A stretch of DNA of 44,526 nucleotides from a virus (IMGVR_UViG_3300017747_003050:1-44526); one strand, 5' to 3'; shown: positions 1,355 through 36,828, counted from the first letter of the stretch. Notes: generated by a model from the letters alone, not told the origin. A program made the numbers and translations.

Positions 1355-1500
1355 GGATATCCGCACTCTGCATCCTCGGCCTCGTGGCGCTGTTTCTGTA
1401 CGCGCCGCAGGATTTCAACACCATCCTAGCAGGCTTCGGCATCCTCGCCCTGAGCCTGCTCGCTATCGGTTCAATCTTTCATGAAAGGCGCAGACGATGA
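1351..1500 (+). CDS. Small two-TM protein (49 aa, MRISALCILGLVALFLYAP...)
   Basis: ATGA overlaps at both ends; this is the likely true start within the 1192..1500 ORF. Confidence 0.7.
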   Translation: MRISALCILGLVALFLYAPQDFNTILAGFGILALSLLAIGSIFHERRRR

Positions 1501-2024
1501 CCACGGGGACGGGAGAAATGAACTGGTACGCCTTGCGCGTCATCAGCCAACGCGAGGACATGGTCAAAAAGGCCCTGATCTACAGGGGGCATCAAGCCTT
1601 CACGAAGCAGGAGCGCCGCTTCGGGAAGTGGATTCGCGGCAAAAGGACGGACAAGGAATACGTCGCAGCGCCTGGCTATGTGTTCGTCGGGACCAAGGGC
1701 AACCCTTGGATGGAAGTCCACAACTGCCACCTGATCCGGAGCGTTGTCAGCTATAACGGGCGCCCGGCCCAGCTTCACCCCAAGGGGCTGTCGGACTTCC
1801 TCGGTTTCGATGACTTCAACCTGCCAGACTATTTCAAACACTTCCGCCATCTGGAAGCGGCGTTCAAGGTGGGCGAGATGGTCACGATCGATAACCCGTC
1901 CTTCGCCGGCTTCGAACTCAGGGTGAAAGACATCCAGCGCGGGGAAGCTATCTTCGACCTCGTCATGATGGGCCGGGAGACAGAATTGCGCATTCCCGTC
2001 TCTGAATGCTCCAAAGCTGCTTGA
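1497..2024 (+). CDS. NusG-family transcription antitermination protein (NGN + KOW)
   Basis: WYALRVISQRE N-terminus, PGYVFV motif, FKVGEMVTI...FAGF KOW region, MMGRETELRIP C-terminus; sits at the Q-antiterminator position ahead of the late genes. Confidence 0.9.
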   Translation: MTTGTGEMNWYALRVISQREDMVKKALIYRGHQAFTKQERRFGKWIRGKRTDKEYVAAPGYVFVGTKGNPWMEVHNCHLIRSVVSYNGRPAQLHPKGLSDFLGFDDFNLPDYFKHFRHLEAAFKVGEMVTIDNPSFAGFELRVKDIQRGEAIFDLVMMGRETELRIPVSECSKAA

Positions 2025-3521: not shown

Positions 3522-5068
3522 AGGCCCTCGATAACCTAGCCAACTGGCGCTGGCGCCTGGCTAACCTCTATTCGATCGCAGACGAGAAAGGCCGCATCGT
3601 CCCGTTCCGCCCTAATGCAGAGCAGGAACGCTTCCTCGATGAGATGCACACGCTCAACCTGATCCTCAAGGCGAGGCAGTTGGGCTTCTCCACGCTCATT
3701 CAGATGATGGCGCTGGATACCTGCCTGTTCCACGGGAACACAAACGCGGGCGTCATTGCGCAGGACATCGATACCGCAAAGGACATCTTCCGGCTCAAGT
3801 TCAAGGACGTCTACGACCGCCTGCCGGCAGAGCTTAGAAGCCGGGTGGTCGCCACACAGGACGCAGCGCAGGAGATGACGTTCTCGAACGGGTCGAAGAT
3901 CCGGGTCGGGACATCCCTTCGCGGCGGGACGTACCAGTTCCTGCACGTCTCAGAGCTTGGAAAGATCGCGGCCAAGTACCCGGAGAAGGCGCGAGAGATC
4001 AAATCGGGTGCGCTGAACACGGTTCACGCCGGGCAACACATCTTCATCGAGAGCACGGCAGAGGGGCAGGGTGGCCTGTTCTATGAGCTTGTGCAGGACG
4101 CCCAGAGCCGGGACGAGCAGGGGATTGAGCCAAGCCCGCTGGAGTTCAAGCTGTACTTCGCCCCGTGGTGGCGTGACCAGCGCTACCGGCTGGATTCACA
4201 GCGGACCATCCCGCCAAAGCACGTTGAGTATTTCAAGGAACTGGCCCGCCAGCAGGGCATCCGCCTCGATAGGGCGCAGCAGACCTGGTACTCACAGAAG
4301 GCTAACCAGCAGAAAGAGGACATGCGGCGAGAATATCCGTCCTATCCGGCTGAAGCATTCGAGGCCCCGATCGAGGGCGCGTACTACACGCAGGAACTAC
4401 AGCACGCGACGGACCAGCGCCGGATAGGGGAATACCCGTTCGACCCGAAGCTGGGGCAGGTGTTCACATTCTGGGATCTGGGCCGCTCGGATCAGATGAC
4501 GATCTGGCTGGGCCAACGCCGCGGCCCGTCACGCTGGCGCTGGTTTGAGTACATCGAGGGGCAGGACGAGAGCTTCCCCTATTACGCCCGCCTGCTGAAA
4601 GAGAAGCAGCAGGAGTATCGCTGCGTCTATGGCGCCCACTTCCTGCCGCACGATGGATCACGCAAGGAACTGATCGCCACGGAAAGCCGCCAGACTGCGC
4701 TGGAGAACCTTGGCATATATCCGTGTCAGGTGGTGAGCCGCACCAAGGATCTGAGCGGCCCCAGCCTCACGTCATCGATCAACCTCGTCAAAGCCCTCAT
4801 AGACGTGTCCGAGTTCGACCGGGCGGGCTGCGCCAATGGCATCAAGCATCTGAAGAACTACCGCCGCGAGTGGGACGACAAGCTGGCCGTCTGGAAGTCC
4901 TCGCCGCTTCACAACATTGCATCGGATGGCGCGGACGGGTTCCGCACGGCTGCCGAGGCTGATTATCAGGGGCTGTTAGACGCCATGTTCTACAACAACG
5001 AGCCAAGCCCCGGCGAACATGCCCAAGGCTATGACCGCCGCTCTGCTGACAGCGTGACGGGCTACTGA
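3518..5068 (+). CDS. terL: Terminase large subunit
   Basis: Walker A LILKARQLGFST, Walker B FLHVSE, coupling motif ESTA, RNase H-like nuclease WDLGRSD...SDGADGF. Confidence 0.95.
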   Translation: MKALDNLANWRWRLANLYSIADEKGRIVPFRPNAEQERFLDEMHTLNLILKARQLGFSTLIQMMALDTCLFHGNTNAGVIAQDIDTAKDIFRLKFKDVYDRLPAELRSRVVATQDAAQEMTFSNGSKIRVGTSLRGGTYQFLHVSELGKIAAKYPEKAREIKSGALNTVHAGQHIFIESTAEGQGGLFYELVQDAQSRDEQGIEPSPLEFKLYFAPWWRDQRYRLDSQRTIPPKHVEYFKELARQQGIRLDRAQQTWYSQKANQQKEDMRREYPSYPAEAFEAPIEGAYYTQELQHATDQRRIGEYPFDPKLGQVFTFWDLGRSDQMTIWLGQRRGPSRWRWFEYIEGQDESFPYYARLLKEKQQEYRCVYGAHFLPHDGSRKELIATESRQTALENLGIYPCQVVSRTKDLSGPSLTSSINLVKALIDVSEFDRAGCANGIKHLKNYRREWDDKLAVWKSSPLHNIASDGADGFRTAAEADYQGLLDAMFYNNEPSPGEHAQGYDRRSADSVTGY

Positions 5069-11168: not shown

Positions 11169-11443
11169 CCCCACAACAGCGCGCAGAATGGCTGGAAGAG
11201 TTCCAGGCATGGCGAACGCTCCCGATGACGGAGGCGTTCTTCAACTCGCTCACGAACGAGCAGAAGGAACTGCAAGCGGACTGGACGCGGGCTGTGTGGG
11301 AATCAGAAGCAGACCCGCCACCTGACCAGCTCCGGCAACTGAGGATTCAGGCACGAACGCTTGATGACGTGATCAACAGAAAGGGAACAGATGTCCTTAC
11401 ATCACTCTACCCTGACCTACGAGACACTCCCGAAGGTCAGTGA
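11165..11443 (+). CDS. Hypothetical head-region protein
   Basis: 92 aa, ATGA overlap; F.AW...P.T..FF pattern seen ahead of phage GroES-like genes. Confidence 0.75.
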   Translation: MTPQQRAEWLEEFQAWRTLPMTEAFFNSLTNEQKELQADWTRAVWESEADPPPDQLRQLRIQARTLDDVINRKGTDVLTSLYPDLRDTPEGQ

Positions 11444-11786
11444 AACCAATCCGGGGATGAAACCACTTGAGTTCAACTGCCTGGTTCTCCCGCGTGTCGT
11501 CCAACGGCAACGGGCCTCGGGCATCTTCGTTCCCGAAACCAGCGCGCAGCGCGAGGACGAGGGCGGGGATGAGGGGCTGTTAGTCGCCATCTCGCCGCTG
11601 GCATTCAACGAGGACGACTTTCCGAACCCTGACGCAATCCCGAAGATTGGCGAGCGCGTGATGTTTGCACGCTACGCCGGCAAGTCCTTCGTGGGCGCTG
11701 ATGGCCGTGTCTATCGCGTGATGAAGGACAAGGAGATCGTCGGCATTCGCACAGCGGATGCGGAAAGCGCCAAGGTGGCGGCATGA
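11391..11786 (+). CDS. GroES/Cpn10-like co-chaperonin
   Basis: MKPLEFNCLVLP...ASGIFVPET...GLLVAISP...KIGERVMFARYAG...YRVMKDKEIVG matches the Cpn10 fold pattern; RBS AAAGGGA. Confidence 0.85.
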   Translation: MSLHHSTLTYETLPKVSETNPGMKPLEFNCLVLPRVVQRQRASGIFVPETSAQREDEGGDEGLLVAISPLAFNEDDFPNPDAIPKIGERVMFARYAGKSFVGADGRVYRVMKDKEIVGIRTADAESAKVAA

Positions 11787-31349: not shown

Positions 31350-31778
31350 ATGGAACTTCTGCTGAAGGAGCAGCTTGAGCTGCAAAAACGCTCCTCCGAG
31401 CGATCCGATTGGGAAAAAATCGCAGCGTTGCAAGAGGCCGTTTCAGTCCTGAAGTCACGCTTTGAAGGCGCGCTGGACAGCATTCGCGAAAAGCTTGGCG
31501 ATGCTGTGAGTGATGAAGACATCAAGGAGATTCGACGCGAGTGGGAGACGGCTATGCGTGATGCACTATCAGGGGTCCGTGAGCACTTCGCCACGGCCAA
31601 TGAGAACCAGTCCAATGCGCTTCTGGCGCAAGTTGAACTGATGCTCGCGCGCGATCGGGAGATGGCGGCGAACGAAGCAAAGAAGACGCGCCAACAGGTG
31701 CTGTTTCTGATCCTTGGAGCGGTGCTTTCCATCTTCGGGGCGCTGTTTGTCTTCTGGGAAACCACCGCGCGCATGTAG
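31350..31778 (+). CDS. Coiled-coil protein with C-terminal TM helix (possible holin/antiholin)
   Basis: 142 aa; helical soluble part then VLFLILGAVLSIFGALFVFW. Confidence 0.75.
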   Translation: MELLLKEQLELQKRSSERSDWEKIAALQEAVSVLKSRFEGALDSIREKLGDAVSDEDIKEIRREWETAMRDALSGVREHFATANENQSNALLAQVELMLARDREMAANEAKKTRQQVLFLILGAVLSIFGALFVFWETTARM

Positions 31779-31798: not shown

Positions 31799-33007
31799 AT
31801 GGGCAAGTTCTTAGACAATTTCCTTGCATTCAAAAACGAGGCCGACGCGACCCGCAAGTTTGCGCTGTTCGCGGTGGTCATCATCACGGTTGGCCTTGCC
31901 TCGCTGTCTGTCACGGGCATCGTCGCAACCGCCAAGTGGACGTGGCTGTCAGCGCTTCCGACGTTCGGCCTAATCCTAGCCGTTCTCGGTGCAGAGCGTC
32001 TGGCGACCGTCGCGTTCATCCGTATGCTCACCGCATCAACGATGTGGCGCAAGATTGCGGGCGCATTCATCTTCATTGGCCTTGCCGCTGTCGGCGTCCA
32101 CAATGCGGAGAACGGCGCGAAGGTTGTCTGGCCGGAGCGGTTCGCGGAAAGCTCTGCCTCGCTTCAGGCAAAGGCGGCGCTTGCAGGCGAGGAAGCCGGG
32201 ACACTCGGCACGGCGCAGCAGGCAGCTATCTCAGGAACCGGCGCAGAGCTTGAGCGCGTCCGCGTCCAGATCGCGGAACTGAAGACCGAGCAGCAGATCA
32301 TGGCGAGCATGTCGCCGGAGGGTATCTCCAAGGCTCAAAGCCTCTTGCTCGCTCAGGGCCTATACTTCGGCAGCGTGGACGGCATCCGGCAAGACAAGAC
32401 GGAAAGCGCCATGCGTGCGCGCGGCGAGGCGATCCAGGCTGAGCTTGCCACCCTCAAGGCGCGTGAGGACGGGCTCATGGCGGGGCAGGCGAGCCCCGTC
32501 CAGCAGGCCACCACGGATCGCAGGCTGTCCGAGATCGAACTAGCCGACAAGGCAAACGCCGCGTTCTGGGCGTGGCTCTGGCTCATCATCATGCTTTGCG
32601 TTCTTGAGGGCGCCCGTTCTCTCAGCCTGTGGGCGCTCATCACCGACATCAATTCCAAGGACGCACAACGCGACCGCGACTGGACCGACGAACTGGCGGC
32701 GCTTCGACATCAGCAGGAACGTGCGCGGATCATCGCAGAAACCAACGCTGCGGTTGCCGCCTATTCGGCCCCGCCTGTCGCGGTTGAGCCTGTCGCGGCT
32801 ATTGAGCCTCCCCCGGAGCCGGAACCCGCACCAGAGCCAATCCCTGAGCCGCTGACGCTGGTTGATCCCGCGCCCGCCAACCAGGCGCTCCGCAAGGGCG
32901 GCAAGAACTCCTCCATGAAGAAGGCCGCAGCCAAAGCGGCGCGTAACCGCGTGCTCATCCTCGCTGACCGCAGCAATGCCCAAGCCATGAAGGTTGCCGC
33001 AGAATGA
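31799..33007 (+). CDS. Multi-TM membrane protein with extracytoplasmic coiled coil and peptidoglycan-binding-like domain
   Basis: Three N-terminal TM segments, KAQSLLLAQGLYFGSVDGIRQDKTESAM (PG_binding_1-like), a fourth TM, then a Pro/Glu-rich and basic tail. Confidence 0.75.
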   Translation: MGKFLDNFLAFKNEADATRKFALFAVVIITVGLASLSVTGIVATAKWTWLSALPTFGLILAVLGAERLATVAFIRMLTASTMWRKIAGAFIFIGLAAVGVHNAENGAKVVWPERFAESSASLQAKAALAGEEAGTLGTAQQAAISGTGAELERVRVQIAELKTEQQIMASMSPEGISKAQSLLLAQGLYFGSVDGIRQDKTESAMRARGEAIQAELATLKAREDGLMAGQASPVQQATTDRRLSEIELADKANAAFWAWLWLIIMLCVLEGARSLSLWALITDINSKDAQRDRDWTDELAALRHQQERARIIAETNAAVAAYSAPPVAVEPVAAIEPPPEPEPAPEPIPEPLTLVDPAPANQALRKGGKNSSMKKAAAKAARNRVLILADRSNAQAMKVAAE

Positions 33008-34539
33008 TTGACTGGATCGCTGTTGACCTCGGTACATGCAACTCAGCAGTTGCCATCTATGGACCTCTTGGCCCGGAAGTCCTGAAGATCGACGGATCGG
33101 AACTGGTTCCGTCTGCCGTCATGCTGGTTCACACCGACAACCCCGAAAATCCGTGGGAAGTGGTTGTAGGCCAGCGCGCCTTGCGTGCGCGTGAACGTTC
33201 ACCGCGTTCGCCTTACTGCTTCACCAGCTTCAAGCGCCAGCTAGGGGCCGTCTACAACCCGGAGGAAGCCTATCCGGAGCAGATGTGCGAGGGCGTCGAT
33301 GCGGAAGGCAAGCGCACCGGAATGCTCGCCTATCAAGGCTATGACGGGTTCACTTATCCGCCCGAGGAACTGGTCAGTTATGTGCTGATCCATCTTCGGG
33401 AAGCGGCTGAAGAAAAGCTGGGCAAGTCGGTCAAGAACGCCATCATCTGCGTACCTTCCGCCTACAATATCGCCCAGAGCAACGCACTGCGCAAAGCGGC
33501 AGAGATGGCGGGATTCGAAGAAGTCGAATTGCTGCACGAGCCGGTTGCCGCGGCCATTGCGCATGGCTTTAAGGAAGAAGCCGAGAAGGTCAGCCGCATC
33601 TTCGTAGTGGACGTTGGGGCTGGTACGACTGACTGCGCAGCCTTTGAGATCGGCGGCGGTCTGTTCCGGGTTCTGGGGACAAACGGCGCGGCGCTTGTCG
33701 GCGGCGATGATTGGGATCTGCGTCTCCGCAGCCTGGTCATGACGCTGCACGAGTTTGAGCACGAGAACTCCGCACTTGCCACGCAGCCAGACGCGCAGCG
33801 CATGTTGCTTATCGAGGCTGAAGCTGCAAAGCGCCGACTGTCGGAAGACGACCTCACCGAGTTTCGCGTCGAGGACATCGACATCGACAAGAAGACCAAC
33901 GAGGATGTCCACGTCATCCAGCGCATCAGCCGCGACCACATGGACGAGGCGACCAAGGAACTGCTGCGCGACATTGAAGACGCGATGACGCGGACGATGG
34001 CTGAAGCCAAGGAGAAAGACCCTCGCTTTTCCGTGCATGATATCGACTGCGTAATTCTCGTGGGCGGGCAGACGCGCGTGAAATCGATCCAGAGGAAGGT
34101 TGCTCACTTCTTCGGGAAGGCTCCAGCCTCAGGCGTTGACCCCGAATTAGCCGTCGTGCTCGGAGCCGCCGTGAAGGCAGGCATCCGCGAGGGCAGGCTC
34201 GCCAGCATCACCATCGAGAACATCACCTCGCACGGCTTCTCGATCGAGACGCACGACAAGCCGGAAGACGTGGCAACCGAGATCGTTCGCAAAGGGACGG
34301 CCTACGGCACGAAAGCGACGTGGTGGCTTCGACCGCGGGGCGATGCAGGCCAGTCCGTCATGACGCTGAAGCTCTTGCAGGGCGATTCCAAGGAGCCTGG
34401 CGAGAACATCGTGGTCTGGGAACATCATATCCCGATCGATGCTGAGGCTCCGGAAGACGTGCAGCTTGACGTGGAGATCGGCCCGTCAGGCGAGCCTATA
34501 CTTGACGTGGCTGGTGCATCATTTGGCAGGGCGGCATGA
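33004..34539 (+). CDS. Hsp70/DnaK-family ATPase, C-terminally truncated (no alpha-helical lid)
   Basis: AVDLGTCNS (phosphate 1), SFKRQLG, ICVPSAYN, LHEPVAAAIAHG, VVDVGAGTTD (phosphate 2), VGGDDWD, EAEAAKRRLS, LVGGQTR (adenosine), degenerate SBD-beta. Confidence 0.92.
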   Translation: MIDWIAVDLGTCNSAVAIYGPLGPEVLKIDGSELVPSAVMLVHTDNPENPWEVVVGQRALRARERSPRSPYCFTSFKRQLGAVYNPEEAYPEQMCEGVDAEGKRTGMLAYQGYDGFTYPPEELVSYVLIHLREAAEEKLGKSVKNAIICVPSAYNIAQSNALRKAAEMAGFEEVELLHEPVAAAIAHGFKEEAEKVSRIFVVDVGAGTTDCAAFEIGGGLFRVLGTNGAALVGGDDWDLRLRSLVMTLHEFEHENSALATQPDAQRMLLIEAEAAKRRLSEDDLTEFRVEDIDIDKKTNEDVHVIQRISRDHMDEATKELLRDIEDAMTRTMAEAKEKDPRFSVHDIDCVILVGGQTRVKSIQRKVAHFFGKAPASGVDPELAVVLGAAVKAGIREGRLASITIENITSHGFSIETHDKPEDVATEIVRKGTAYGTKATWWLRPRGDAGQSVMTLKLLQGDSKEPGENIVVWEHHIPIDAEAPEDVQLDVEIGPSGEPILDVAGASFGRAA

Positions 34540-35813
34540 ACGACCATCTGACCGTAGGCGAATGGTTCTATCGCGAGATAGACGAGTTCGAAAACGCGCC
34601 TGCGGACTGTCGCCAGACAGCGGACGGTTGCGCTCTGGAAGCCTATCTCTGCCCGAGCAATCAGTGGACCATCGGTGATGGCTGCTGCTTCTGGGAGGAT
34701 GGGCGCCCGGTCCAGCAAGGCGAGACGCTGCCCGATGACGAACACCTGCCTGAGCGCCGGCGCAAGCTGCTGGGCTTCAATGCCAAGTATTGCGAGGAGT
34801 ATGTCCGCAGGCACGTCACGGTCCCGCTGACGCAGAACCAGTTTGATGTGCTGTGCAGTTTCCGGTTCAACACCCGTGAGACAACGCTCAGTGGATCGTC
34901 GCGGCTGCTGCCTGCGATCAACGCTCAGAAGTGGCAGGATGCCGCTGTCGCAATGACCGAGTTCGTCTATGGCTCTGGTTCAAAGCGCGGCCCGGTCAAG
35001 CTTCCGCCGAAGGGCTGGGACGTTGAAAAGAGCGGCGGGCAGTGGTGGGCAATCCCGCCTGATCACCTGACTGGCGCTGAGCGCATTGAGCTTGGCGCGG
35101 AGGAGAAGTGGTATCCCTACCAGGATGCACACAGGGGCCTGCTGAGACGGCGTCTCTGGGGCGGGCTCGTGTTCCTCGATTACGACCCCCGCGACGTGAC
35201 GAAAGACAACGACGTTGCCTTGCCGACAAAGGCCAAGTTGCTTTCCACGGGCGTCTGGCGCGATTCCATCAGCACGGAAGGGCTCACGACGCTGGCGCAT
35301 GTTCGGATGCGCGCCAAGCCCTTGCCCACTGAGCTTGTCCTCTCAACCCCCATCAAAGCTGAGCCCCCGACCTCTGTGATTGAGGCGGCAGGCAAGGCGG
35401 GCCAGCCGGTGCCGCTGCCCGGCCCAGCACCGGCTGCGCCTGCCTCCAAGACTTCCGCGAGTGGTTCCTCGGAAGCTACGCCGGTCGCGCTACCTGTCCC
35501 GGCTCCCCAGCCGACACCAGCGCGACCGGCGCCTGCTTCTGTGCCGGCGAAGGTGGAGGCTAAGCCTGTCGCGCTGCCTCTCCCGAAGGATGCCGCACCC
35601 GCCAGCATCGAGCCAAAGGACATGGTGATGTCCAAACGCTTCTGGGGCCTGACGGTTACGGCGCTTGGCACAACGAACCTGCTGCCTCAGGCCGCGCAAA
35701 CGTGGGTCACGAACGAGGGCAACCGCGAGCTGATCACATGGCTGATCGTCGTGGCGATCGGGTTCGCGCTCTACAAGTACGGGCAGCACAAAGCGAAGAA
35801 GCCGCTGAAATGA
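34536..35813 (+). CDS. Endolysin (GH24/T4-lysozyme-like) with Pro/Ala linker and C-terminal two-TM domain
   Basis: GCALEAYLCPSNQWTIGDG, VPLTQNQFDVLCSFRFN, RGLLRRR; C-terminal SKRFWGLTVTALG...LITWLIVVAIGFALY. Confidence 0.85.
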   Translation: MNDHLTVGEWFYREIDEFENAPADCRQTADGCALEAYLCPSNQWTIGDGCCFWEDGRPVQQGETLPDDEHLPERRRKLLGFNAKYCEEYVRRHVTVPLTQNQFDVLCSFRFNTRETTLSGSSRLLPAINAQKWQDAAVAMTEFVYGSGSKRGPVKLPPKGWDVEKSGGQWWAIPPDHLTGAERIELGAEEKWYPYQDAHRGLLRRRLWGGLVFLDYDPRDVTKDNDVALPTKAKLLSTGVWRDSISTEGLTTLAHVRMRAKPLPTELVLSTPIKAEPPTSVIEAAGKAGQPVPLPGPAPAAPASKTSASGSSEATPVALPVPAPQPTPARPAPASVPAKVEAKPVALPLPKDAAPASIEPKDMVMSKRFWGLTVTALGTTNLLPQAAQTWVTNEGNRELITWLIVVAIGFALYKYGQHKAKKPLK

Positions 35814-36118
35814 ACATCGCAGCGATCGGGACTGGCATCTGGGGCTTTCTCAAGCGCATCCCGGATTGGGTGCTGTGGGCTCTCGCGGCCATCATCTTCC
35901 TGAAGTTCGTGGACATGCGGGCAGAGCATCGCGGGCGCAAGGAAGAGGGCGCCAAGCGCGACAAGGAAGCCGCCGAAGTCGAGCGTGAAGTTGTCACCAA
36001 CATTCAGGAGAATACCGATGCAGTCATTGCTGAGGCTGACGCTGTGCGCGGCCATACCTCTGCTGGCGTCCTGCCAGACGGAAGCGCGACCCTCGAAAAG
36101 CATCATTATCGCGACTGA
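35810..36118 (+). CDS. Rz-like inner-membrane spanin
   Basis: ATGA overlap with the endolysin; N-terminal TM then coiled coil; overlapped by a lipoprotein ORF. Confidence 0.75.
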   Translation: MNIAAIGTGIWGFLKRIPDWVLWALAAIIFLKFVDMRAEHRGRKEEGAKRDKEAAEVEREVVTNIQENTDAVIAEADAVRGHTSAGVLPDGSATLEKHHYRD

Positions 36119-36293
36119 CCGAGCCGTGTGGAAGGAGGCGCTTTGCTCTACGGGCAAGGCGATCCTGATCTCGCGCGCCGACATCCTGACGCTGGAAACA
36201 GCAGAGCAGATTGGCGACCACAATAACGCGCTCTGGTGCGCTTGTGACCATCTGCGCCCGACAACTTTTGACGCTGGCATCTGCCGCGTCTGA
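36018..36293 (+). CDS. Rz1-like outer-membrane lipoprotein spanin
   Basis: RBS AGGAG; MQSLLRLTLCAAIPLLAS-C lipobox; SRADILTLETAEQI..HN..LW..C pattern; overlaps the 3' end of Rz in another frame. Confidence 0.8.
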   Translation: MQSLLRLTLCAAIPLLASCQTEARPSKSIIIATDRAVWKEALCSTGKAILISRADILTLETAEQIGDHNNALWCACDHLRPTTFDAGICRV

Positions 36294-36342
36294 CCCGCTC
36301 AACCCGCTGCCCATTCTGCGCAGCTTTTAGGAGGACGTGCAT

Positions 36343-36582
36343 ATGGGCTTCAAGATTGTTCGTGAGGACGGCAAGACGGATTGGGGTTCGATCCGAGCCG
36401 TGTTCTACTGCCTGCTCGCAACCTGGATCATCGGCGTTCGCCTCATTGGCCTTGACCCGTTCGATGACATGATCGCCGGCAGGTTCGACCTCGGCGTGAT
36501 GTTCGACTTCCTCGCGCTGGTCGGCGTCTACCTGCTCTGCTGGCACCTGATGTATCCGAACCGCCCCAAGGTCAGCCTCTAG
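36343..36582 (+). CDS. Small two-TM membrane protein
   Basis: RBS AGGAGG; two hydrophobic segments. Confidence 0.7.
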   Translation: MGFKIVREDGKTDWGSIRAVFYCLLATWIIGVRLIGLDPFDDMIAGRFDLGVMFDFLALVGVYLLCWHLMYPNRPKVSL

Positions 36583-36585
36583 TCC

Positions 36586-36828
36586 ATGCGTCCCAGCCCG
36601 GCGATGTTCGCGGTCCTATCCGTGGCTGTCGCCGGGCTCGTGGCGTCTGGTATCTGGCTCACCGGGATGGCTCAGGAATGCCATACGCGGTGGCACAGGT
36701 CAGGCTTCGCTTACGAGTGGCGGGACTGGACCTGTTACGTACAGGCGGGAACTAGGTGGGTTCCGAGTTCAGCGGTGCGCGTTCACGTCAGGGAGCAGGG
36801 TGCGACAGACCGCATGGCGACGCCTTGA
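36586..36828 (+). CDS. Small membrane-anchored protein
   Basis: N-terminal TM; C...W......W....C.V....W.P pattern. Confidence 0.65.
   Translation: MRPSPAMFAVLSVAVAGLVASGIWLTGMAQECHTRWHRSGFAYEWRDWTCYVQAGTRWVPSSAVRVHVREQGATDRMATP

Follow-up and report, generated by a model that had tools for sequence, protein, structure and literature searches.

The uncultured virus record IMGVR_UViG_3300017747_003050 (44,526 nt, analysed over positions 1-44526 and called the window from here on) encodes an Hsp70 chaperone without a lid, set among its lysis genes. The gene belongs to a module whose constant core is three genes: a coiled-coil/transmembrane (TM) gene (31350..31778), a multi-TM gene (31799..33007) and the Hsp70 gene itself (33004..34539), all on the plus strand here, as are the other window features with coordinates below. 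Uncultured phages from several groups that are unrelated to one another, with unrelated capsids, carry the module; it is a conserved unit under purifying selection and, as far as we searched, undescribed. Our preferred reading, to which we give a probability of roughly 0.45, is that the Hsp70 may act independently of J-domain proteins, held at the inner membrane by the C-terminal tail of the multi-TM protein, where it would gate or remodel lysis proteins. An earlier note on this DNA, made from the sequence alone, had proposed a dedicated phage Hsp70 module, and the gene order, the selection and the position outside host DnaK bear it out.

The Hsp70 is a 511-aa protein that matches the Pfam HSP70 family (PF00012) at E 1.5e-75, with about 31% identity to DnaK. 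The five ATPase motifs named in the earlier note are all there. It does not reach the NCBIfam cut-offs for DnaK (244 bits vs 648 and 822) or for HscA (196 vs 620 bits). Its C-terminal end corresponds to DnaK position 505 and the alpha-helical lid is absent; the canonical DVLLLD linker is also absent, altered at residues 401-406. Both features had been read from the sequence beforehand. Of the proteins checked, four cassette members and two more distant ones stop at DnaK 504-506; the Hsp70s of two distant loci, L225 and L226, are somewhat longer. An AlphaFold model from a 32-row alignment (predicted local distance difference score 87.9, predicted template-modelling score (pTM) 0.87) has a full nucleotide-binding domain and a beta sandwich whose last strand is stubby; a lid helix is missing. 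The sandwich is docked in the model, a pose that the predictor may have learned and that is not evidence of state. Foldseek matches the model to ATP-state and truncated DnaK structures at template-modelling scores of 0.84-0.88.

Residues were mapped onto Salmonella DnaK across 43 distinct pairs of membrane protein and Hsp70, the set left after dropping duplicates and partial genes. The ATPase site is intact: the equivalents of D8, G10, K70, R71, P143, E171, D194, T199, D201, E267, K270, G341, G342 and R345 are invariant in all 43. The earlier note had called the beta substrate domain degenerate, which proves too strong. The domain is divergent and still folds as a sandwich in the model; hydrophobic residues persist at peptide-pocket positions 401, 426, 436 and 438, the Q433 equivalent never varies (43/43), and we therefore regard it as remodelled, not decayed. 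The contact site for J-domain proteins, on the other hand, is lost. R167 and Q378 of DnaK are described as the contacts of the aspartate in the HPD motif of the J-domain (PMC8215388). The R167 equivalent is Arg in none of the 43 and Glu in 29, and the Q378 equivalent is Lys or Arg in 40. E206/E217/D477 and the GrpE-side residues are not conserved either. No J-domain was found in the five cassette records searched, the window included, and a general scan of 51 window open reading frames (ORFs), with no search aimed at the GrpE family, matched no GrpE; the same had been said of the window before. No isc genes lie among the window ORFs. In 27/43 members the R167 and Q378 equivalents form an acid/base pair (E175 at 33526-33528 and K391 at 34174-34176 in the window), and we speculate that such a pair could form an internal salt bridge instead of a contact to a J-domain. 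The catalytic residues are kept, and ATP hydrolysis may be coupled to peptide binding, but among the allosteric positions Y145 and D148 have not been retained, and R151, taken up below, is altered in part of the members.

A protein search with the 511-aa sequence returned 19 clusters (408-511 aa, 46-96% identity), followed by a gap down to full-length DnaK at about 32%. Searching through the membrane neighbour brought in many further Hsp70 subtypes at 31-38% identity, and a profile search of 1.84 billion representatives found many more Hsp70s of 475-525 aa; the 18 looked up lie on contigs of up to 64 kb. A scan with a degenerate motif gave eight loci, two of them Hsp70s; a scan with P0391 gave no locus. 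No member of the family was found among GenBank phages, whose best Hsp70 matches are below 34% identity. In a 70-row tree a single branch splits all 39 short proteins from the 31 full-length ones, with a support of 99 in the approximate likelihood ratio test (SH-aLRT). A 75-row tree with HscA, HscC and 13 other short proteins added puts 29 of 31 phage-type rows plus one other on one side (SH-aLRT 100); this is a quick IQ-TREE run without bootstrap and with one HscC row, in which long branches could inflate the separation. The cassette Hsp70s lie outside both the DnaK and the HscA clades, and HscC also lies outside the phage clade. The members that have diverged less share about 43% identity with alphaproteobacterial DnaKs (the Hsp70 of a distant locus, L223, is 42.5% identical to a Caulobacter DnaK), which fits an old origin from DnaK. 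The protein represents a new Hsp70 subfamily of known fold and belongs to an old clade separate from DnaK, HscA and HscC. The median ratio of nonsynonymous to synonymous substitution (dN/dS) is 0.071 (range 0.02-0.17), with 0.06 in the nucleotide-binding domain and 0.10 in the beta domain, over the 41 of 903 pairs with dS of 0.05-0.8; the median of 0.35 among 400 pairs with dS above about 1 is inflated by saturation and was left unused. A decaying capture of host DnaK would have nested in the host clades with dN/dS near 1 and no lasting synteny, and none of the three was found. Two other sets of viral Hsp70s came up in the searches. A different 509-aa Hsp70-like protein, 22% identical and outside the clade, is encoded on viral contigs of 71-248 kb (L065, L066 and L069:5989-7518), and hundreds of IMG/VR contigs (L085-L157) carry a full-length DnaK of 615-650 aa (at least 571 relatives), some of which may be host DNA.

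The order of the genes is kept with little exception. Scans of viral and metagenome sequences found the TM gene at 112 loci, a count that takes in redundant contigs and the window's own copies, and Hsp70 lies downstream in 101; each of the 11 misses has at most 789 nt left. Sampling began from genes of the module and so cannot reveal relatives that lack it. In the distinct pairs, a protein of 128-155 aa with one C-terminal TM segment is encoded upstream wherever there is room (34/34), and a lysozyme gene lies downstream of Hsp70 in 40/40 with room, 36 adjacent and four after an insert of 660-819 nt (L007, L026, L044 and L217). The window has ATGA overlaps at both joints (31799-33007 / 33004-34539 / 34536-35813), as had been noted, and the overlap between the TM and Hsp70 genes is kept in 31/43. 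In L024 these two genes are split by a 240-aa ORF (1296-2018) that looks HNH endonuclease-like by eye. The first gene of the module had been left out of the earlier note, for all its constancy. In the window its product is 142 aa long, a coiled coil in the cytoplasm that ends in a single TM segment; it has no family match, and it could be a tail-anchored protein or, by architecture and position only, holin-like. A promoter and terminator scan around the module gave signals at chance level.

The membrane partner is a 402-aa inner-membrane protein with 260 homologs. The chain begins with three TM helices and continues through a long coiled-coil hairpin to a fourth TM segment; a further helix, a Pro-rich linker and a tail follow. 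An N-in topology, which we infer, would place the hairpin in the periplasm and the tail in the cytoplasm. The earlier note had it as a four-TM protein with a peptidoglycan (PG)-binding-like motif. As a membrane protein it holds up: three segments exceed the hydropathy threshold, and the fourth (~84-102) is supported by a modelled helix and by four segments in a second family of partners. A fold search with a low-confidence TM model (pTM 0.32) gave generic helical matches only, and the ESM Atlas returned unnamed, mostly viral clusters. The PG-binding part fares less well. What there is amounts to a half motif resembling PG_binding_1 (32315..32419) at the tip of the coiled coil, in one partner family only. 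PG_binding_1 (PF01471) has no Pfam match in the window protein, and two relatives reach E 0.03 and 0.12 over half of the profile (best 15 bits, against a gathering score of 23 for the three-helix domain). A regular expression for the motif hits 118/122 family-1 bodies and 0/43 family-2 bodies. The second family (45 clusters) has the same layout; homology of its body to the first is undetectable, and it shares the tail types, some almost letter for letter. The five family-2 partners examined all show a weak likeness to DUF4407 (PF14362) over the coiled-coil part (best 31.1 bits against a Pfam gathering score of 31.3), and the window's family has no such hit; the matches listed in a literature search held nothing on the function of DUF4407. 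In a non-circular profile comparison, the three families of bodies showed no homology to one another.

The tail (residues 365-402, 32891..33007) is the proposed docking peptide for the Hsp70. It is built of an Arg-x-Gly-Gly motif, an Ala/Lys-rich helix and a hydrophobic strand of 4-5 residues, RVLIL (384-388) in the window. DnaK-binding peptides have a hydrophobic core with basic flanks, according to the accessible part of PMC8215388, and the tail matches with its hydrophobic core and basic flank. Identity in the tail correlates with identity in Hsp70 at a Mantel r of 0.88, against 0.15 for the body and 0.21 for the Pro linker (42 pairs, L004 left out). Individual loci tell the same story: L003 and L044 have identical bodies with different tails and Hsp70s, and L004 has another body with the window's tail and Hsp70. 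The tail type tracks the Hsp70 subtype across two unrelated bodies, which makes the PG-binding-like motif optional. The earlier proposal that the Hsp70 works with its membrane partner gains support from this co-variation.

Beyond the close relatives, L223 (Hsp70 at 34% identity) keeps the coiled-coil/TM gene, a partner gene with four TM segments and Hsp70, plus one small gene more; a related anchored lysozyme and spanin-like genes are there too, and the locus has ATGA overlaps. Just upstream of that cassette, on the opposite strand (4097-4831), is a second multi-TM coiled-coil protein. The module is also independent of the head genes. A homolog of the window's capsid protein occurs in 2/12 cassette-bearing records and in 0/6 near-complete ones; G004 has an Hsp70 99% identical to the window's on a different head and tail type and without that capsid protein, and G002 and G003 likewise have a different head and tail type. 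Therefore, the module moves with host-facing genes and not with heads, a pattern that speaks for a host-facing role and makes a capsid chaperone less likely.

The mechanism we propose is as follows. The three genes would make up a module of the envelope that is co-expressed with the lysis genes. From its place in the inner membrane, the multi-TM protein would bind the lid-less Hsp70 through its cytoplasmic tail. The tail would either fill the peptide pocket, as a pseudo-substrate built into the partner, or add a beta strand, in the manner of Zuo1 with Ssz1. Targeting would thereby depend on the tail and no longer on host DnaJ. Once tethered, the ATPase would act on lysis proteins at the membrane. 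Its targets would most likely be the holin-like coiled-coil/TM protein and, in loci that have one, the anchored endolysin, which it would hold and release as a matter of timing, or else remodel. On the co-variation, tethering by the tail without a J-domain is probable. That the complex acts on lysis proteins we favour only slightly; the most likely client is the coiled-coil/TM protein that is always next to Hsp70, together with the anchored endolysin where there is one. The full picture, which we hold as possible but doubtful, would be a fourth, ATP-driven part of lysis: an envelope-spanning machine with an Hsp70 docked by a peptide and not by a J-domain, gating holin triggering or endolysin export in response to the cell's ATP state or to signalling by the periplasmic coiled coil. 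It would be an old module, exchanged among unrelated podovirus-like lineages as specificity cassettes of tail plus Hsp70, and maybe assembled twice.

A number of observations weigh against this reading. The step from tether to lysis has gene position as its sole tie. The tail adjoins Hsp70, and shared recombination blocks alone could give the co-variation; the Pro-rich linkers are natural crossover points, so that linkage could produce the pattern. The last residues of the tail may also be fixed by the Hsp70 ribosome-binding site and the ATGA overlap. The lysozyme domain also correlates with Hsp70, at r 0.70, and the pairs are not independent. Linkage nonetheless poorly explains a recognisable tail on unrelated bodies beside a drifting linker. 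Turning to the Hsp70 itself, R151 is replaced in 16/43, the window's protein among them, and the classical cycle may therefore be lost, as in Ssz1. Then there are L225 and L226. In both, the coiled-coil/TM gene, a multi-TM gene and Hsp70 (here 534 aa) come after the spanin-like genes. Their TM body and tail have no detectable relation to the other partners, their Hsp70s branch apart from the main clade and nearer to the full-length group, and GH24 lysozyme was found in neither record (38% and 88% complete). In G002 the sole lytic-enzyme candidates lie far from the cassette. It is from the distant members without an adjacent endolysin that we place the core at three genes, with the endolysin link strong and not universal. 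The earlier note had tied the module to the endolysin; this stands for the close loci and lapses beside two distant members, and the weight it gave to both endolysin and PG-binding motif was too high. Finally, the TM protein has no match in GenBank phages, no cultured phage carries its gene, and two scans of GTDB genome contigs gave no prophage copy.

Of the alternatives, two keep the module at the envelope. The Hsp70 could be a chaperone or exporter specific to the endolysin, tethered so as to keep the anchored enzyme unfolded or inactive and to aid its passage into the periplasm through or beside the multi-TM protein. The endolysin gene adjoins Hsp70 in 36/40, usually overlapping, and the correlation of its lysozyme domain with Hsp70 would be expected. 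A Pro-rich linker and a hydrophobic C-terminus are found in complete endolysins, many endolysins have a short hydrophobic patch at the start of the linker, and L223 retains the same endolysin type. We nevertheless think it unlikely: L225 and L226 have no adjacent or detectable GH24 endolysin, in two pairs lysozyme domains only 50-52% identical stand beside Hsp70s 96-97% identical, and some endolysins lack the linker patch or have it elsewhere. The other possibility is a non-lytic role in superinfection exclusion, in sensing for lysis inhibition or in counter-defence, with the periplasmic coiled coil sensing damage or an incoming phage and signalling to Hsp70. The place in the late operon would then be incidental, or serve late expression. 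Whole periplasmic bodies are swapped while tail and Hsp70 persist, Hsp70 subtypes range from 31 to 99% identity, which would fit the pattern seen in conflict genes, the module may follow the spanins, and the window, G001 and G004 have integrases. Set against this are the stop/start overlap with the endolysin, the lack of any promoter or terminator signal above chance near the module, a PADLOC run without a convincing match (one 42-residue match at E 7.6e-5), and retention that is universal and not patchy among the relatives found through the TM gene. We consider such a role distinctly unlikely.

The remaining alternatives detach the Hsp70 from the membrane. A chaperone for virion assembly, or a virion component, would recall closterovirus Hsp70h or the phage chaperonins, and the late-operon place behind the tail-fibre genes and the GroES-like gene in the window's head module could be read that way. 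It is improbable, since near-identical Hsp70s sit with unrelated capsids and terminases and the constant partners are membrane proteins. GroES was itself considered as part of the system and rejected: of 19 cassette records only two have it, both of which also share the capsid protein of the window, and it goes with the capsid and not the cassette. A general substitute for DnaK, or a sink for host DnaJ, could draw on the intact ATPase site and peptide pocket, and other phages do carry full-length DnaK (PMC12619734, portion available). Here the changed R167 and Q378 equivalents, the unconserved E206/E217/D477 and GrpE-side residues, the missing lid and the fixed membrane partner make the idea highly improbable; with the J-domain contacts lost, the titration of host DnaJ that the earlier note had entertained is unlikely. 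A recent capture of host dnaK, decaying in place, would account for DnaKs being the best cellular matches; against a deep separate clade, dN/dS of about 0.07 and fixed synteny, it is hardly credible.

We looked for counterparts among known systems. With DnaK the phage protein shares the fold of the nucleotide-binding domain, the catalytic residues and a beta sandwich with a hydrophobic pocket. It differs in having no lid or tail, a non-canonical linker, R167 and the GrpE-side residues lost and a fixed membrane partner, and it is phage-only as far as seen. The closest working analogy is Ssz1/HspA14 with Zuo1. In the available text of PMC7083937, Ssz1 has no lid and an altered linker, its beta domain is completed by strands of Zuo1, a Zuo1 pseudo-substrate occupies its pocket, and it binds ATP without hydrolysing it. 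The lid-less form and the altered linker are shared, and a partner peptide in the pocket may be. However, that pair is eukaryotic and ribosome-bound, Zuo1 has a J-domain that the phage partner lacks, the phage Hsp70 keeps its catalytic residues, and the homology is that of the Hsp70 fold only. HscC is likewise an Hsp70 brought to the inner membrane through neighbouring genes. According to PMC8215388, this specialised Hsp70 of E. coli is recruited by the tail-anchored DjlB and DjlC, carries a loop insertion in its beta domain and works without GrpE; it keeps a shortened lid and J-domain partners, and is 25% identical to the window protein.

Virus-encoded Hsp70s are known from closteroviruses, giant viruses and jumbo phages, and those described from phages are full-length, host-like DnaKs of large phages, none of them lid-less, membrane-coupled or in a lysis operon. 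Closterovirus Hsp70h keeps the ATPase and diverges at the C-terminus, and the accessible part of the same 2026 survey of viral Hsp70s lists one phage sequence, more than 96% identical to a bacterial DnaK (PMC12978162). Another record that bears the name of this phage, Acinetobacter phage MD-2021a (L256, CAKLQF020000009.1), carries the bacterial iscU-iscA-hscB-hscA operon, so the single phage Hsp70 of that survey is probably host DNA. Jumbo 'moraphages' carry a host-like DnaK (PMC12619734, same portion). A 2026 review describes bacterial DnaK derivatives without a lid and of unknown function, and in its available part the word 'phage' does not occur (PMC13580251). No published description of this lysis-cassette Hsp70 unit was found in a search that covered subscription literature thinly, and within that scope nothing known in phage lysis corresponds to the three-gene module. 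Conventional holin-endolysin-spanin cassettes share the GH24 endolysin, the overlapping spanins and the small TM proteins; the searches turned up none described with an ATPase chaperone and a multi-TM partner.

The endolysin (34536..35813, 425 aa) is a GH24 enzyme (Pfam E 4.7e-18) with a Pro-rich linker and a hydrophobic C-terminal region, a predicted membrane anchor. Among the endolysin motifs listed, the position of T4 lysozyme D20 is Cys in nearly all and that of T26 is Glu in many. The order of muramidase, Pro-rich region and C-terminal TM segment resembles Caulobacter SpmX, a likeness that is architectural only, since the NCBIfam cut-off for SpmX is unmet (15.8 vs 700 bits, E 0.006) and this endolysin belongs to a phage lysis operon, where SpmX is a single-copy gene of the chromosome. 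The available part of the SpmX preprint mentions occasional phage muramidases fused to TM segments and leaves open whether the phage ancestor had them (10.1101/418723). Downstream are a candidate inner-membrane spanin (35810..36118), Rz-like by position and an N-terminal hydrophobic stretch and without a family match, and overlapping it an Rz1-like lipoprotein, the other spanin subunit (35985..36293; PHROG Rz-like spanin, E 1.2e-8). They are followed by an 81-aa two-TM protein (36337..36582), an alternative holin candidate present in only some relatives, and an 80-aa one-TM protein with two cysteines (36586..36828), common in relatives.

The gene set is that of a temperate, podovirus-like phage (terminase, portal, capsid, DNA-ejection proteins, tail spike, integrase and repressor), and CheckV puts the record at 84% completeness. 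A NusG-like antiterminator (1497..2024) lies 5' of the late genes; G004 has one too. The GroES/Cpn10-like gene of the head module (11391..11786), with no GroEL among the ORFs scanned, presumably encodes a co-chaperonin for capsid folding in the manner of T4 gp31. The overlapping spanin pair implies a Gram-negative host, and the nearest relatives of the integrase include phages of Sinorhizobium, Agrobacterium, Paracoccus and Rhodobacter, among others; the host is likely to be an alphaproteobacterium. A partial Hsp70 on a 1-kb contig labelled Rhodobacteraceae/Paracoccaceae is too weak for host assignment. There are no tRNA genes in the window or in 53 loci. Contigs from one RNA run (0.05 share) leave Hsp70 uncovered and are uninformative on expression.

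If the preferred reading is true, an ATPase chaperone with its own membrane dock would be a new class of component in phage lysis, beyond holin, endolysin, spanin and the small regulators. The module also offers a natural and highly diverse family of lid-less Hsp70s in which the J-domain contact is lost and the catalytic site kept, each with a candidate docking peptide. The targeting of an Hsp70 without a J-domain would thereby become testable with cognate and non-cognate peptides.

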